Below, in pieces: positions 2,775 through 44,694 of a stretch of 45,391 nt of DNA. A program made the position numbers and the translations under genes. The notes beneath the pieces were generated by a model that was given only the letters and a program-made list of their open reading frames with translations, ran no database searches and was not told where the DNA came from. Source of the DNA: a virus (Duplodnaviria; Heunggongvirae; Uroviricota; Caudoviricetes); the IMG/VR virus record IMGVR_UViG_2778261297_000007, positions 1-45,391 of that record. The stretch is one strand, 5' to 3'. Each line of letters begins with the position of its first letter. Position 1 is the stretch's first letter.

Positions 2775-2900
2775 ATAATACCTCTAATACAATTCACGTT
2801 AAAAAATTCTGCGCAAGTTGTTATTCCGCTATTAATAGCAGAAATAGCAGGATGAAATAACTCTAATTACAACATTTTGAATGTATGTTAGGTAATTACT

Positions 2901-3113
2901 TCAAATAAGTTTGCTGCGTTGCGATAGCCATTCATCAATCTCTGATTCAACCCATCCAACAGATTTCACTCCGAGCATTCGCTTTTTGGGGAAGGAAGCG
3001 TCGTAACGCGGTGATTTGGGGTTCAACCAGTCGTAGATTGTTGCCCTTGCCATACCAGTTTTTTGGATTACCGTAGGTAAGCGGAGTATCCTAACGGTTG
3101 ATGGATTGTTCAT
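2901..3113 (-). CDS. alpA: AlpA-family transcriptional regulator
   Basis: 70-aa protein with the characteristic AlpA motif (ILRLPTVIQKTGMARATIYDWL...); located near a P4-type integrase. Confidence 0.8.
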   Translation of the reverse strand: MNNPSTVRILRLPTVIQKTGMARATIYDWLNPKSPRYDASFPKKRMLGVKSVGWVESEIDEWLSQRSKLI

Positions 3114-4116: not shown

Positions 4117-4142
4117 AAGCCCGTATTATTAATAGTTGAATT

Positions 4143-4167
4143 ATCAGCACCCATTATGGGTGCTGAT
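4143..4167. terminator. Bidirectional hairpin between convergent cargo gene and integrase
   Basis: Perfect inverted repeat atcagcaccc-attat-gggtgctgat located between the stop of the + cargo ORF and the stop of the - integrase. Confidence 0.4.
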
Positions 4168-4174
4168 AAAGGAT

Positions 4175-16690: not shown

Positions 16691-16767
16691 CGGCCCTTTA
16701 GCTCAGTTGGTTAGAGCGTGCGACTCATAATCGCCCGGTCGCTGGTTCAAGTCCAGCAAGGGCCACC
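16691..16767 (+). tRNA. tRNA-Ile2 (CAU, ileX-like; may score as tRNA-Met)
   Basis: Cloverleaf with anticodon loop CTCATAA; close to the E. coli ileX sequence as recalled; ends in CCA. Confidence 0.7.
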
Positions 16768-16769
16768 AG

Positions 16770-16844
16770 ACCGCCACTAGCTCATCGGGAAGAGCGGCAA
16801 CCCAGGTGTTGTGGTACGGGGTTCGAGGCTCCGGTGGCGGACCA
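16770..16844 (+). tRNA. tRNA-like sequence with anomalous anticodon arm (possible pseudo-tRNA or unusual tRNA)
   Basis: Good 7-bp acceptor stem, D arm and T arm (TTCGAGG loop), CCA end; by hand-folding the anticodon loop is 6 nt (CCAGGT), so the anticodon is unresolved. Confidence 0.4.
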
Positions 16845-16846
16845 CT

Positions 16847-16922
<76 letters not shown>

Positions 16923-16925
16923 TAT

Positions 16926-17000
<75 letters not shown>

Positions 17001-24633: not shown

Positions 24634-25273
24634 ACAGCGGCTGGATATTCCGCTACAGCTAAAGTCTGTCAGCGACAGCGGGGAGTTTGAAGGCTATGGC
24701 TCTGTTTTTGGCGTAAAGGACAGCTACGATGATGTTGTTGTGCCAGGCGCTTTTTCGGCCTCCCTTCAGGCATGGAAAGAAAAGAATGCTCTCCCTGCAT
24801 TACTCTGGCAGCACCGTATGGATGAACCCATCGGTATTTACACTGAGATGAAAGAAGATGAGGTTGGCCTTTATGTTAAAGGCCGGTTACTCATTGATGA
24901 CGATCCCCTTTCGAAACGCGCACACGCCCACATGAAGGCCGGTTCTTTAACCGGCCTTTCTATTGGTTACATGCTGAAAGACTGGGAGTACGACCGTGTT
25001 AAGGGCGTGTTCCTTCTCAAAGAGATCGACCTGTGGGAAGTCAGTCTCGTAACGTTTCCGTCGAACGATGAAGCGCGGGTAAGTGATGTCAAAAGCGCAT
25101 TTTCCCGCGGAGAAATCCCTTCTCAAAAAAGTATTGAACGAGTCCTGCGCGATGTTGGGCTCTCACGCACCCAGGCTAAAGCATTCATGGCCGGGGGTTA
25201 TGGCTCACTTTCACAGCGTGATGTTGATGAAGTGAGTACCGCACTGGATGCACTGAAAAACATCAAATTTTAA
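24620..25273 (+). CDS. Prohead protease (HK97 family)
   Basis: 217 aa between portal and major capsid genes; sequence resembles HK97-type proteases. Confidence 0.75.
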   Translation: MPMTKQRLDIPLQLKSVSDSGEFEGYGSVFGVKDSYDDVVVPGAFSASLQAWKEKNALPALLWQHRMDEPIGIYTEMKEDEVGLYVKGRLLIDDDPLSKRAHAHMKAGSLTGLSIGYMLKDWEYDRVKGVFLLKEIDLWEVSLVTFPSNDEARVSDVKSAFSRGEIPSQKSIERVLRDVGLSRTQAKAFMAGGYGSLSQRDVDEVSTALDALKNIKF

Positions 25274-40484: not shown

Positions 40485-40718
40485 ATGAGAAAACTGATTA
40501 TCTGCATGGCAGGCGCTGTCATGCTTACAGGATGCGCTGGCGTAATTGAGAAACAGGAACCAGTTTGCAGCGGCACTGCAATCGTTGGCGGTCAGGAAAC
40601 TACGGTTCAGATTTACGGTGTGCGTAAACAAAACAACCAGACGCAGTACCGGGCTGGATATCCTTTCAGCTGGCGCTGGGTAAGTGCGAATACATTTACC
40701 GAAACAACCTGCAAATAA
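40485..40718 (+). CDS. Small lipoprotein, possibly Cor-like superinfection exclusion protein
   Basis: Signal peptide with lipobox (MLTGC); 77 aa; located among tail-fibre genes where Cor-type genes occur. Family assignment tentative. Confidence 0.4.
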   Translation: MRKLIICMAGAVMLTGCAGVIEKQEPVCSGTAIVGGQETTVQIYGVRKQNNQTQYRAGYPFSWRWVSANTFTETTCK

Positions 40719-40739
40719 CCCACTACGCTTAAACATAAA

Positions 40740-40762
40740 CCTCGCTCCGGCGGGGTTTTTTT
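40740..40762 (+). terminator. Hairpin + T7 downstream of the lipoprotein gene
   Basis: cctcgc-tccg-gcgggg followed by ttttttt. Confidence 0.45.
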
Positions 40763-40778: not shown

Positions 40779-41786
40779 ATGCTTTATAACACCGGCACCA
40801 TCGCCATTAATGGAAATACCGCCACCGGGACGGGTACAAACTGGACGGCACCGGCCAGCCAGGTTCGCGCTGGGCAGACAATTATCGTGATGTCTAACCC
40901 GGTGCAGCTGTTCCAGATTTCATCCGTGAACAGCGCCACGTCAATGACGATTACGCCTGCAGCTTCTCCGGCGCTGAGCGGCCAGAAATACGCCATTCTG
41001 GTGTCAGACATTATCTCCGTCGACGGACTGGCCCAGGCAATGTCGCAGCTTATCAAGGAGTATGACGAGAATATTGGTGCGTGGGAGACGTTCGCCACAA
41101 CCTCAGCCAACCAGAACATTACCGTTACGATCAATGGCACCAGTTTATCAATCCCGGCTCTTGGGAAATTACTGCAGAAGGGGAGCAACGGAGCTTTGCC
41201 GGTTAATCAAGGTGGTACCGGCGCAACGAATGCCGCAGACGCTCGCACAAACCTTGGTTTGGGAGAAGGTGCTCCAGCTATTGGCGTTCCGTTCTTCTGG
41301 CCGTCCGCCGCAATGCCAAATACTGTAATCGACAGTTGGTCCAGTATGGTGTTTTTGAAGTTCAACGGCGCGAAATTCTCTGCCACTGATTACCCTGTGC
41401 TGGCGAAAGTGTTTCCGGCGCTAGCATTACCTGACGCACGGGGTGATTTCATTCGTATCTGGGATGATGGGCGCGGGATTGATGTCGGACGTACCCTACT
41501 TTCAGGGCAATCACACACAATTATGGATCATGCACACAATATGGAATTGTGGACGGGGGACGGGCTTGCCGCAGGAAGTGCACGGGAAGGAGTAAACCCA
41601 GGAATACTGGCTACATACGGTGACGGGGGAATAGTTAAAACGGACGAACCCGGTCTTAAGGTGCCTTCCTCACTACGAGCTCTTAGCTCTCGTAGTGTTA
41701 AACGTTATGGTGAAATTAGTGGAAATGTAGATACAGAAACCCGTCCACGAAATATTGCATTTAACTTTCTGGTGAGGGCTAAATAA
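40779..41786 (+). CDS. Side tail fibre protein (constant N-part + invertible C-part)
   Basis: Gly/Thr/Asn-rich fibre-like sequence; the inversion crossover repeat lies inside the gene at 41254-41268. Confidence 0.7.
   Translation: MLYNTGTIAINGNTATGTGTNWTAPASQVRAGQTIIVMSNPVQLFQISSVNSATSMTITPAASPALSGQKYAILVSDIISVDGLAQAMSQLIKEYDENIGAWETFATTSANQNITVTINGTSLSIPALGKLLQKGSNGALPVNQGGTGATNAADARTNLGLGEGAPAIGVPFFWPSAAMPNTVIDSWSSMVFLKFNGAKFSATDYPVLAKVFPALALPDARGDFIRIWDDGRGIDVGRTLLSGQSHTIMDHAHNMELWTGDGLAAGSAREGVNPGILATYGDGGIVKTDEPGLKVPSSLRALSSRSVKRYGEISGNVDTETRPRNIAFNFLVRAK
41254..41268 (+). repeat. Inversion crossover site, left (inverted repeat of 43114-43128)
   Basis: ttggtttgggagaag, exact reverse complement at 43114-43128; embedded in palindromic caaacc-TT-ggtttg resembling gix/hix/cix sites. 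Confidence 0.6.
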
Positions 41787-42379
41787 TGATACCTGTTTTT
41801 GATGAAAATGGGCTGGCTACAGTGCCGGGCGATATGCGTTGTTTTTATTATAATGCAGTAACGTATGAATATACCGGCTGGTCTGATGAATATATTAATA
41901 CTGGCGTAAGTATACCCGCCTGTTCCACTGGTATTGACCCGGGCGAAAACATCCCGGGAAAAGTGGCAGTATTTACGGGTAAGGGATGGAGCCATGAAGA
42001 AGACCATCGCAATGAGACCGTTTACTCAACTGAAAATGGCGCAGCTGTTACAGTGGATTATATCGGTGCCATCAAAGACGGTTATGTCACGCTTTCACCG
42101 TTAACGCCATACGATAAATGGGATGGTGAGAAATGGGTGACGGATACCGAGGCACAGCATAGCGCCGCAGTAGAAGCGGCAGAAGCACAGCGCCAGTCGC
42201 TGATTGATGCTGCAATGGCTTCCATCAGTCTGATTCAACTGAAATTACAGGCTGGGCGGAAGCTGACGCAGCCAGAAAACACCCGACTTAACGCTGTGCT
42301 GGATTACATTGACGCGGTGACGGCAACAGATACCAGCACAGCGCCGGACGTCATCTGGCCTGAACTGCCGGAGGCGTAG
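41786..42379 (+). CDS. Tail fibre assembly protein (Tfa)
   Basis: 197 aa immediately after the fibre gene. Confidence 0.7.
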   Translation: MIPVFDENGLATVPGDMRCFYYNAVTYEYTGWSDEYINTGVSIPACSTGIDPGENIPGKVAVFTGKGWSHEEDHRNETVYSTENGAAVTVDYIGAIKDGYVTLSPLTPYDKWDGEKWVTDTEAQHSAAVEAAEAQRQSLIDAAMASISLIQLKLQAGRKLTQPENTRLNAVLDYIDAVTATDTSTAPDVIWPELPEA

Positions 42380-42794
42380 ACCATTCAATATCTGGCGCAC
42401 CGGAAGTATCGACCAGTTCCAGTGCGTCCAGATAATCCAGCCACAAATTATATTGCGCCAGTTCCTCACCTTTCAGACGACCAATTGATGCTTTACCTGG
42501 CCATTGTTTACTGTTTATGTATTCGTTGGCCTGGTTAATCAATTGCTGCTTTTTAGTTTCGGCTGATGCAATTTGTTCTTCACGTGTTGGTGGAGGAATA
42601 TCTGCCCATGCAGGCAGTCCATCCTCTCCGACACATCTGTATTTTCCTTCTGGTGGTGTATCATAGAAATATTCCCTGAAAATTACTTCGTCTATATCAA
42701 CACCTTTTTCTTCAGGCCATTCACCTTTTTCAACATAAAGAGACTGAAGTTCGTAAGGATATGCCAGGTTGTTTACGTACAGATATTTCATCAT
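42351..42794 (-). CDS. Alternative tail fibre assembly protein (Tfa') in invertible segment
   Basis: 147 aa convergent with tfa; C-terminal region similar to the + strand Tfa (…GAPD(V/I)(I/E)W…). Confidence 0.65.
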   Translation of the reverse strand: MMKYLYVNNLAYPYELQSLYVEKGEWPEEKGVDIDEVIFREYFYDTPPEGKYRCVGEDGLPAWADIPPPTREEQIASAETKKQQLINQANEYINSKQWPGKASIGRLKGEELAQYNLWLDYLDALELVDTSGAPDIEWSTPPAVQAR

Positions 42795-43147
42795 TACCAG
42801 CCCTTAGCGAAAAACGCACCACCTTCAAGACCATAATTGCAGTGAGCTATGAAGCCGGTAGTGCTCCAGTTGGTCGCCCCCCACATATTCCCGCCCCCGA
42901 AACCACCATCGCACACAATTACAATGCCCGGTGTCTGTGTAAATGGAATCGGGAATGAAACATTGGCGGATACAGGCCCGTGTTCACCAGGAAAACTAAT
43001 TCGTCCCCACTGTTCAATTGAACCATCTGGCATTTTTCGCCAGCCTGAACCTGATGCATATGATGACATATCAGGTATCTGATTTTCCCCTGTTCCCACA
43101 TTCCGTTTTGCCGCTTCTCCCAAACCAACCTTTTTTATAACCATCAA
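42794..43147 (-). CDS. Alternative tail-fibre C-terminal segment (expressed as fusion after inversion)
   Basis: Reads through the right crossover repeat encoding VGLGE, the same residues (LGLGE) encoded at the left repeat in the fibre gene; the first 6 codons lie outside the invertible segment. Confidence 0.55.
43114..43128 (-). repeat. Inversion crossover site, right
   Basis: cttctcccaaaccaa = reverse complement of 41254-41268; ~40 bp upstream of the invertase gene. Confidence 0.6.
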
Positions 43148-43170
43148 AAATCTGGTGATGCTTCGCCGTT

Positions 43171-43193
43171 TCTCCTGTTTTCATAACAGGAGA
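43171..43193 (+). promoter_or_regulatory. Perfect 9-bp-stem hairpin sequestering the invertase RBS
   Basis: tctcctgtt-ttcat-aacaggaga; the 3' arm contains the AGGAG Shine-Dalgarno 8 nt before the invertase ATG. Confidence 0.4.
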
Positions 43194-43199
43194 AATCCC

Positions 43200-43754
43200 A
43201 TGATTTACGGTTATGCCCGAGTATCAACAAACCACCAGGACACTGAATTGCAACTAACGGCGCTCAAGTCAGCGGGTTGTGAGAAAATTTTTGAAGAGCA
43301 TGCCAGCGGGAGGAAATCGAATCGGCCGGTTCTAAAACGGCTCATCGCCACTATGCAGCCGGGGGATGAACTGGTGGTCTGGAAGCTGGACAGGATAGGC
43401 CGCAACGTTCTGCATGCGCTGTTGATGTTCCAGCAGTTACAGGAAAAGGGTATCAACTTCCGCAGTATTACCGATGGCGTGGATCTCAAAACAGCCAGCG
43501 GCCGCTATAACTTTCGTAACATCCTTTCCGCAGCACAATATGAATCTGATCTTAATAGCGAACGTACCTTAGCAGGGCTGGCCGTAGCCAGGGCAAAAGG
43601 GCGAGTTGGTGGTCGCAGGCCTAAGTTCACGGATGAGCAATGGGCACAGGCTGGGAGATTAATATTAAACGGCGTGGATAGAAAACAAGTGGCAATAATT
43701 TATGATGTCGCTGTATGCACGCTTTATAAAAAATTTCCGGTGGGACAGGCTTAA
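43200..43754 (+). CDS. Serine recombinase, DNA invertase (Hin/Gin/Pin/Cin family)
   Basis: N-terminal catalytic motif MIYGYARVSTNHQDTELQ (Ser in YARVST) and C-terminal HTH; next to the inverted repeats. Confidence 0.85.
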   Translation: MIYGYARVSTNHQDTELQLTALKSAGCEKIFEEHASGRKSNRPVLKRLIATMQPGDELVVWKLDRIGRNVLHALLMFQQLQEKGINFRSITDGVDLKTASGRYNFRNILSAAQYESDLNSERTLAGLAVARAKGRVGGRRPKFTDEQWAQAGRLILNGVDRKQVAIIYDVAVCTLYKKFPVGQA

Positions 43755-43796: not shown

Positions 43797-44060
43797 TTAT
43801 CCATTCTGCCGTACAGTTGGAAATTCAGACGTCAGCCACATGTCAGATTCATCAAACATTTCCTCCAGCATACGGTTCAGCTTTTCCCGATCACTTTTGC
43901 TGGCATCACTATTTAAGCCGTTCGCCTGCATCGGCTTCACTTTCACCTCGGCATCAGGGAAAATCTGGTGCACCCGCTTCGTCAGCTCGGCCAGAATAAT
44001 TCCTCTGGCCCCTTCAAGCCCCTCTACATTGCGTTTGTCATAAACCAGTTCAACGAACAT
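43797..44060 (-). CDS. dinI: DinI-family (MsgA-like) protein
   Basis: 87-aa acidic protein with DinI-like architecture; two LexA boxes immediately upstream. Confidence 0.7.
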   Translation of the reverse strand: MFVELVYDKRNVEGLEGARGIILAELTKRVHQIFPDAEVKVKPMQANGLNSDASKSDREKLNRMLEEMFDESDMWLTSEFPTVRQNG

Positions 44061-44077: not shown

Positions 44078-44121
44078 CACTGTGATTGTATACAGTATTT
44101 TTACTGTAAAAATAAACAGTG
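44078..44121 (-). promoter_or_regulatory. Two tandem LexA (SOS) boxes upstream of dinI
   Basis: cACTGTgattgtatACAGTA (44078-44097) and TACTGTaaaaataaACAGTg (44102-44121), both CTGT-N8-ACAG. Confidence 0.6.
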
Positions 44122-44331: not shown

Positions 44332-44694
44332 TGGTGGAGCTGGCGGGAGTTGAACCCGCGTCCGAAATTCCTACATCCTCGGTACTACATGCTTAGTCAG
44401 TCTTTACATTCGCTTGCCAGCTGCGGACGGACACGCCACTAACAAACTAGCCTGATTAAGTTTTAACGCTTCAACCCCAGGCAGGGCTTCCACGCGATCT
44501 CTTTTGGGTTTGACCTCTCTTGATCCCCGTCCTAAGAGCGGAGGCTAGGGAGAGAGGGCTCTAAGCAGGTTATTAAGCTGCTAAAGCGTAGTTTTCGTCG
44601 TTTGCGACTATTTTTTGCGGCTTTTTACGAGGCCAACCGCCCCTCGGCATGCACCTTGGGTTTCGCAAATCCCGTCGAATCCAGAATCAGCCCC
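44332..44694 (-). ncRNA. ssrA: tmRNA (SsrA)
   Basis: Reverse complement begins GGGGCTGATTCTGGATTCGACGGGATTTGCGAAACCC and ends ...GGACGCGGGTTCAACTCCCGCCAGCTCCACCA; contains the tag-template region (...AAACGACGAAAACTACGCTTTAGCAGCTTAA). Confidence 0.9.

Follow-up and report, generated by a model that had tools for sequence, protein, structure and literature searches.

Does the tail-fibre locus of the Caudoviricetes record IMGVR_UViG_2778261297_000007 (45,391 nucleotides, here called the window) act as an invertible host-range switch, and does a hairpin in the leader of its DNA invertase gene limit how often that switch is thrown? Judged from its sequence, the element is a phi80/HK97-like lambdoid prophage inserted beside ssrA, and we consider it probable that the locus is the host-range tail-fibre switch of this prophage, with an invertase that the hairpin may limit. 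The switch is of a textbook type, a member of the Gin/Cin/Pin tail-fibre inversion family that combines an e14 repeat with a phi80-type invertase, and is conceptually nothing new; tail-fibre inversion by these enzymes has been known since the 1980s. The mildly new feature is a strong, conserved hairpin over the ribosome-binding site of the invertase gene, which is a plausible throttle. A full-text literature search returned no description of a ribosome-binding-site hairpin on a DNA invertase, a result that does not prove the absence of one.

An earlier note, made from the sequence of the window alone, had proposed an inversion-controlled tail-fibre switch, and its reading holds: the anatomy, the protein families, the catalytic Ser9 and the site sequences fit the Gin/Cin/Pin systems, and the same cassette is found inverted between two Escherichia coli genomes, CX15 and CX07. 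The 15-bp inverted repeat that was said to bracket the segment is exact and lies where the note had placed it, according to both the sequence and a repeat search (Table 1); at 90% identity it grows to 20 nt (41249-41268 / 43114-43133). Without mismatch, the 12-nt half-site TTCTCCCAAACC occurs at only two places in the window, both within the repeats, and a multi-site shufflon is ruled out by the presence of just these two exact half-sites. The two 26-bp crossover sites share the identical inner half-site (read on the minus strand in the left site) in inverted orientation, which is similar to the gix and cix half-sites TTCCTGTAAACC and TTCTCTTAAACC; the comparison sites are Mu gixR (TTCCTGTAAACC GA GGTTTTGGATAA) and P7 cixL (AATCCTAAACC TT GGTTTAAGAGAA). 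The centres of the two sites, TT on the left and AA on the right, are mutually complementary, as they must be for inversion. By analogy with gix and cix, the staggered cut is predicted at these central dinucleotides, which places it at the outermost bases of the 15-bp repeat and in the codon preceding GLGE. The earlier note had put the crossover inside the GLGE codons; GLGE is indeed in frame across the repeat in both fibres, but the predicted cut falls one codon earlier. Similarly, the gix/hix-like palindromic cores that it described are found in the left site (AAACC-TT-GGTTT) but not in the right one (AAACC-AA-CCTTT).

Open reading frames (ORFs) and Pfam matches agree with the proposed content of the segment of about 1.9 kb, namely a fibre C-terminus and tfa on one strand and tfa' and an alternative fibre C-terminus on the other. 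The constant N-terminal part of the fibre gene is 94-96% identical at the DNA level to the tail-fibre genes of phi80 and mEp237. The Collar match of the variable part that is joined to it at present (E value 0.0019) falls short of the Pfam curated cut-off. The start codon of tfa and the fibre stop codon share one nucleotide, and tfa and tfa' are convergent with an overlap of 29 nt. The ORFs of the two alternative fibre ends and of the two chaperones are all intact, and the repeat is translated as GLGE in each fibre end, in one shared frame that is continuous with the constant N-terminus. As is characteristic of this class of switch, inversion would exchange tail-fibre C-termini that each come with their own Caudo_TAP chaperone.

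The Hin/Gin-family serine invertase that had been recognized downstream of the segment is borne out by its Pfam domains, a match to Gin structures and Ser9. It aligns over its full length with the Gin crystal structures 3uj3/4m6f (E value 8e-63) and shares 55-61% identity with Gin (55%), Cin, PinE (58%) and an enzyme of an Enterobacter lineage (about 61%), and 70% with a Citrobacter enzyme. A mutated catalytic serine had been named beforehand as a sign of an inactive switch; Ser9 lies intact within GYARVST, and R7, D64, R65, R68, E121 and R122, invariant in seven family members, are all kept. In Gin, Ser9 makes the covalent link to DNA (PMC3575834). The catalytic domain is identical to that of phi80 PinL, and the enzyme is of the phi80 pinL type. 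Furthermore, the invertase gene is a mosaic, in which nt 1-444 match the common pinL allele at 100% identity and the lineage switches at nt 444, near position 43644; the last 36 residues (the helix-turn-helix domain, residues 149-184, including the recognition helix region) are nearly identical to the Enterobacter lineage and resemble Gin, Cin and PinE. From its sequence, this copy of the enzyme is predicted to be active.

Natural inversion of this cassette at this repeat is documented in other prophages. Many complete E. coli genomes carry the repeat-bounded segment at 99.9% identity, with matches that end at the repeats. E. coli CX15 and CX07 (4,949,018 bp each) carry loci of about 9.9 kb without a single mismatch apart from an exact inversion of 1845 bp, which is bounded by copies of the TTGGTTTGGGAGAAG repeat and adjoins pinE in a Mu/P2-like baseplate cluster; the same cassette and repeat thus recombine in nature, in this pair beside PinE. 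The 0H strains are likewise split by the strand of the cassette. The P segment of the e14 prophage has a 16-bp repeat, TTGGTTTGGGAGAAGG, the first 15 bases of which are the repeat of the window, and about 30% of it is inverted in the wild type, with higher levels upon over-production of PinQ or PinE (PMC12529663). Phase variation of the e14 segment has also been observed in derivatives of MG1655 (PMC4272514). Among IMG/VR prophages with a pinL-type invertase, homologous cassettes of 98-99% identity occur in both orientations relative to the invertase, for example in L051 (+) and L109 (-), and both junction types are present on the same constant fibre region. In the pinL-type contigs (L046-L125), conservation of the invertase module begins at the crossover dinucleotide (at about 2900-3000), with many unrelated fibre ends to its left, which indicates from sequence comparison that cassettes have been exchanged between prophages at the recombination site itself. 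The cassette is also found among unrelated prophages. Complete E. coli genomes contain 88 loci of the pinL type.

The second part of the question concerns the leader of the invertase gene. The 9-bp hairpin that had been described over the Shine-Dalgarno sequence (43171-43193) is present and is larger than reported, comprising 11 perfect pairs (43169-43195) and a closing G43168·U43196 pair. The Shine-Dalgarno sequence AGGAG (43188-43192) lies within its 3' arm, 7 nt ahead of the ATG. In block shuffles, perfect stems of at least 9 bp are expected 0.57 times per window and stems of at least 11 bp 0.03 times, and a 9-bp stem by itself would therefore be weak evidence. Folding predicts a pairing probability of 0.99 for the Shine-Dalgarno zone, and opening of positions -18 to +4 costs 16.6 kcal/mol, compared with a mean of 7.9 kcal/mol in shuffles of the upstream leader (z = 4.6, 0 of 200 as high). 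The homologous pinL of phi80 (16.8 kcal/mol) has the costliest start site among the 59 annotated phi80 genes, the median of which is about 8. In a set of 16 distinct leaders of the pinL type, taken from viral contigs and genomes of Enterobacteriaceae, both stem arms are conserved and the loop is variable: 5 of the 24 stem-arm columns vary compared with 18 of the 29 other leader columns (Fisher p = 0.005). One U-A pair is replaced by a compensatory C-G pair (phi80 type), and one leader breaks a pair. Conservation and thermodynamics together suggest, in our reading, that the pinL-type leader hairpin is a selected element. A search of 43000-43400 with the Rfam 15 covariance models produced no match at E values of up to 1 on either strand. 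Elsewhere in the window, four further perfect hairpins of 10-13 bp were seen (1256-1284, 1830-1857, 4141-4169 and 24935-24958), compared with the chance expectation of 0.57 stems of at least 9 bp.

An in-frame GTG or ATG within 43155-43199 would add 14-15 residues to the invertase, with translation running through the hairpin. Such an N-terminal extension from GTG 43155 or ATG 43158 was rejected as a conserved feature, as relatives either lack the upstream start or have it in another frame, and these starts are probably unused.

Two other invertase lineages have comparable leaders. PinE-type leaders pair AUC[A]UUCCUG with CAGGGAGAU, and a second subtype pairs AUCAUCUCC with GGGGGAUGAU; the 5' arms of the two subtypes are largely alike, both starting with AUCAU, and the Shine-Dalgarno region is paired in different registers. 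In the Enterobacter lineage, in which the invertase lies behind homologous lambdoid fibre genes, a UUCACCUGAU/AUUGGGUGAA helix covers the ribosome-binding site GGGUGA and shows scattered changes of the kind C-G to U·G to U-A and U-A to G-C. These hairpins are milder than that of the window, with z-scores of 2-3 in shuffles of the upstream leader for both types and start-site opening costs of 9.7 kcal/mol in K-12 pinE and 12.3 kcal/mol in the leader variant of CX15 pinE. RNAalifold retrieved just an unrelated 4-pair helix from the PinE-type leaders, a failure that is explained by the different pairing registers of the two subtypes. The U·G and G·U pairs of the PinE and Enterobacter helices favour an RNA structure on the sense strand over a DNA palindrome. 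Two of the hairpin-bearing invertase lineages serve homologous lambdoid fibre genes. By sequence comparison, occlusion of the ribosome-binding site would be in part a family trait. It is conceivable, if somewhat doubtful, that leader hairpins represent a recurrent, independently evolved control of the flipping rate of tail-fibre switches, tuned at translation and not at the sites, with pinL as the extreme case and PinE and Enterobacter as milder ones.

Costly opening of the start site, conserved stem arms and analogous hairpins in two other invertase lineages all fit the reading of the element as a throttle. Its most likely and most economical role would be to keep production of the invertase, and with it the rate of flipping, at a very low level, and on conservation and thermodynamics we regard the chance that it does so as about even. 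The alternative that survives best, which we nevertheless regard as distinctly the lesser chance, is that the hairpin is real and serves another purpose, as an attenuator together with the small hairpin and T-rich tract upstream, as a 5' stem-loop that protects the mRNA, or as a DNA palindrome for a dimeric protein. The small hairpin and T-rich tract are terminator-like and are retained in pinL-type leaders with C-G/U·G alternation, and this hairpin may attenuate transcription into the invertase gene. In addition, the near-invariance of the pinL-type stem makes conservation of DNA sequence and of structure inseparable, and the phi80 annotation labels the homologous element only as a repeat, 'IR3', with no function. 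However, the large hairpin itself is not an intrinsic terminator, as no T-run follows it on either strand and a terminator scan was silent. Nor is it a LexA box, since its sequence, CTGT-N7-ACAG, has a spacer one base too short and did not appear among the CTGT-N8-ACAG hits. In DNA, or in a transcript of the opposite strand, the U·G and G·U pairs of the PinE and Enterobacter hairpins would be mismatched. De Smit and van Duin reportedly related start-site structure to translation, and on that principle a stem of -15 kcal/mol that holds the Shine-Dalgarno sequence must hinder initiation.

In the mechanism that we propose, transcripts of the invertase gene would originate either from a weak promoter with TATAAC in the outer half-site or from read-through of the fibre operon, and all of them would carry the leader. 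Whichever transcript carries the gene, the hairpin would restrict 30S binding and permit only a trickle of invertase. Invertase dimers would bind the two inverted 26-bp sites, one in the fibre gene and one just upstream of the invertase gene, and, assisted by Fis at an intragenic enhancer, exchange strands at TT/AA so that the 1.87-kb segment rotates. In the present orientation, the constant N-terminus would be produced with the collar-type C-terminus and co-translated with the 197-aa Tfa; after inversion, the N-terminus would continue in frame via GLGE into the gp53-like C-terminus, accompanied by the 147-aa chaperone. A lysogen population could in this way release particles of two receptor specificities, and homology suggests that inversion would change the host range.

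Host defence could instead be the main selected role in the lysogen, if the fibre-derived protein of one orientation blocks adsorption of other phages. Inversion of the homologous e14 P segment, which has the same repeat, yields StfE2, which blocks T2 adsorption (PMC12529663), and the cassette is common to unrelated prophages. In the window, however, the cassette ends an apparently complete tail operon (J, Cor, fibre, tfa), the classical host-range arrangement, and we consider host defence as the main role rather unlikely; the two roles are compatible and not exclusive. The weakest alternative, that the switch is a fossil with a fixed orientation and a chimeric invertase or degenerate outer half-sites that no longer function, is improbable, for although phi80 has the same type of invertase by a decayed segment and a PinL truncated in the helix-turn-helix domain, the invertase of the window changes lineage at nt 444, and the right outer half-site reads CCTTT rather than GGTTT, both fibre ends and both chaperones are intact, the repeats are exact, the invertase is full length with its conserved residues kept, the right site of the e14 type, which is known to recombine, has a comparably degenerate outer half (CGTTT), and resident Pin enzymes could work in trans (PMC12529663).

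Several observations weigh against a hairpin-limited, active switch in this prophage. Evidence for both orientations comes from other prophages and contigs, and the orientation here could be frozen. The outer half-sites are degenerate and match the consensus poorly, the invertase is a chimera of two lineages, and the activity of this copy is predicted from its sequence. Support for the enhancer, consisting of homology and synonymous divergence, is indirect. Such segments can also be inverted in trans by further Pin-type invertases of the cell (PMC12529663), and a hairpin acting in cis therefore need not set the flipping rate. With respect to the hairpin, formal covariation is weak, with a single compensatory pair among the pinL-type leaders; from 50 Enterobacter-lineage leaders RNAalifold derived no consensus structure, and the helix drawn by hand for this lineage has 88% paired cells, with covariation not above that of shuffles. 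The leaders of Mu gin (z = 0.6), P7 cin (z = -0.5) and K-12 pinE (z = 1.2) show nothing special, and most leaders of the Morganella/Citrobacter lineage are without such a hairpin. Its absence from Mu gin, P7 cin and most Morganella/Citrobacter leaders indicates that the hairpin is not required family-wide.

Gin, Cin and Hin require a Fis-bound enhancer within the 5' part of the invertase gene, and by analogy with Gin the enzyme of the window would depend on Fis as well. The P7 cin enhancer is annotated at gene positions 19-86, and Fis-like 15-mers are expected near 43233-43247 and 43281-43295 of the window. One good Fis-like 15-mer, GAGAAAATTTTTGAA, was identified at gene positions 82-96, and its partner 48 bp away is a poor match. 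In a codon alignment of 25 family representatives (<90% amino-acid identity), synonymous divergence, scored as the fraction of different codons among pairs with the same amino acid, was 0.35-0.42 in codons 1-17, 0.46 in codons 25-33, 0.66 between them and 0.59 overall. Two conserved DNA blocks, GTATCAACAAA and TGTGA...ATTTTTGA, are prominent. The low synonymous divergence could reflect two Fis sites about 48 bp apart, and a coding or translation-initiation constraint is the alternative.

The right site contains a -10-like TATAAC (43136-43141) in its outer half, to which GATAAT corresponds in Mu gixR, and on this analogy TATAAC may be the -10 element of the invertase promoter. The start of the invertase transcript is predicted near 43148. 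A promoter scan did not call TATAAC, and in the interval from the right site to the invertase ATG it gave no sigma-70 promoter that was convincing; hits in the region were at chance level (10 found, 6.1 expected). A promoter-like TCGCCA-16-TATGAT at 43037-43064, itself a chance-level match, lies inside the invertible segment and is directed at the invertase gene; a genuine promoter there would tie transcription of the invertase to segment orientation.

Among known systems, a close relative is the P segment of e14, the cryptic prophage of K-12. It has the same layout of fibre end and tfa facing tfa' and a second fibre end, with the invertase gene directly downstream (stfP, tfaP, tfaE, stfE', pinE), its cassettes are homologous to those of the window (StfE/collar type and StfP/gp53 type), and its inversion has been demonstrated. 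Unlike e14, the window encodes a phi80 pinL-type invertase with a swapped helix-turn-helix domain, has a leader hairpin of another sequence and much greater strength, and is a phi80/HK97-like siphovirus at ssrA, whereas e14 resides at icd. The pinL region of phi80 (Lula) and mEp237 share with the window the fibre N-terminus, the invertase catalytic domain, the leader hairpin and a nearby DinI-like gene. The invertible segment of phi80 is decayed, with a dinL insertion and pseudogene fragments, and phi80 PinL is cut down to 172 aa; mEp237 retains a matching cassette remnant of only 60 bp, and its fibre and invertase genes are separated by a DinI-like gene. In the window, in contrast, the cassette is intact with both of its states and the invertase is full length, and the integration site differs from that of phi80 and mEp237.

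The Mu G segment has the same architecture, with S/U and S'/U' and with gin downstream on the same strand, and the window shares with it the 26-bp sites, the -10-like box in the outer half of the right site and Ser9 catalysis. The G segment is, however, 3 kb long with unrelated fibre ends, and gin starts with GTG and has a Shine-Dalgarno sequence without a hairpin. In P1/P7, the invertase of the C segment is homologous to that of the window and uses cix sites, the fibre ends likewise alternate and come with chaperones, and an enhancer is annotated within the 5' end of the cin gene; the C segment differs in its larger size, the position of cin on the opposite side of the segment and the lack of a leader hairpin. 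Salmonella Hin belongs to the same invertase family and acts on the H segment by the same Fis/enhancer mechanism, but what it inverts is a promoter and not coding ends, the hin gene is itself part of the segment, and flagellin takes the place of the tail fibre as the target.

For annotation, the locus is useful as an example of an intact e14-type cassette served by an invertase of the phi80 pinL type, here in a lambdoid prophage inserted at ssrA, and of a cassette that behaves as a mobile module with borders exactly at the crossover sites. If the hairpin sets the dosage of the invertase, it would offer a simple, mutable handle on switching frequency, of relevance to bet-hedging models, engineering of phage host range and invertase-based genetic memory devices, and a throttle would explain the so far unexplained IR3 of the phi80 annotation.

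Table 1. Positions in the window of the switch components and neighbouring features.
Feature	Positions	Strand	Remarks
Side tail-fibre gene, currently expressed form, 335 aa	40779-41786	+	ORF
Constant fibre N-terminal part (~159 aa)	40779-41253	+	
Left 26-bp crossover site	41242-41267		CTCGCACAAACC TT GGTTTGGGAGAA; predicted 2-bp crossover 41254-41255
Left arm of exact 15-bp inverted repeat	41254-41268		TTGGTTTGGGAGAAG
Variable fibre C-terminal part (177 codons)	41256-41786	+	weak Pfam Collar match
tfa, TfaE-like tail-fibre assembly chaperone, 197 aa	41786-42379	+	Pfam Caudo_TAP, E value 1.2e-27
tfa', TfaP-like alternative chaperone, 147 aa	42351-42794	-	Pfam Caudo_TAP, E value 6e-32
Alternative fibre C-terminus, currently silent, promoterless	42794-43126	-	Pfam Gp53-like_C, E value 1.2e-7
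Right arm of inverted repeat	43114-43128		exact complement of TTGGTTTGGGAGAAG
Right 26-bp crossover site	43115-43140		TTCTCCCAAACC AA CCTTTTTTATAA; predicted crossover 43127-43128
Small upstream hairpin (TGGTGA/TCGCCG) followed by T-rich tract, invertase leader	43153-43168	+	terminator-like flag
Leader hairpin, 12 pairs (11 Watson-Crick and one G·U), loop TTCAT	43168-43196	+	-15.4 kcal/mol
Serine DNA invertase, 184 aa, ATG at 43200	43200-43754	+	Pfam Resolvase, E value 3.8e-39; HTH_7, E value 7.5e-11
Candidate Fis-dependent recombinational enhancer	43218-43298	+	gene positions 19-99; homology to P7 cin enhancer
DinI-like gene	43797-44060	-	
tmRNA gene ssrA	44332-44694	-	followed by smpB at the window end

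Upstream of the switch, the prophage encodes a TipJ/J-type tail-tip protein of 1185 aa, two small ORFs similar to N15 gp22/gp23 and a Cor-like lipoprotein gene with a terminator, a gene set that agrees with phi80 and mEp237. A closely similar arrangement was identified in just two E. coli genomes, EC09 (by yciI/tonB) and MS 115-1 (at ssrA). Compared over their full length with complete E. coli genomes, ssrA/smpB of the window reach no more than about 98% identity. In phi80/N15, Cor acts in superinfection exclusion; here (40485-40758) a strong terminator stands between the Cor-like gene and the fibre gene directly after it, and the fibre-tfa-invertase block may be transcribed as a unit of its own. 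Two perfect LexA-box motifs (CTGT-N8-ACAG; 44080-44095 and 44104-44119) lie a short distance upstream of the DinI-like gene and overlap a promoter-like TTGACA-17-AAAAAT; four such motifs occur in the window, compared with 0.49 expected. These motifs suggest that the prophage DinI is under SOS control, as for the annotated dinL of phi80. Furthermore, the window contains a tRNA cluster (Met, Thr and Gly) at 16692-17000, which includes an odd ARAGORN call at 16771-16844 with no clear isotype and a two-base 'anticodon'.

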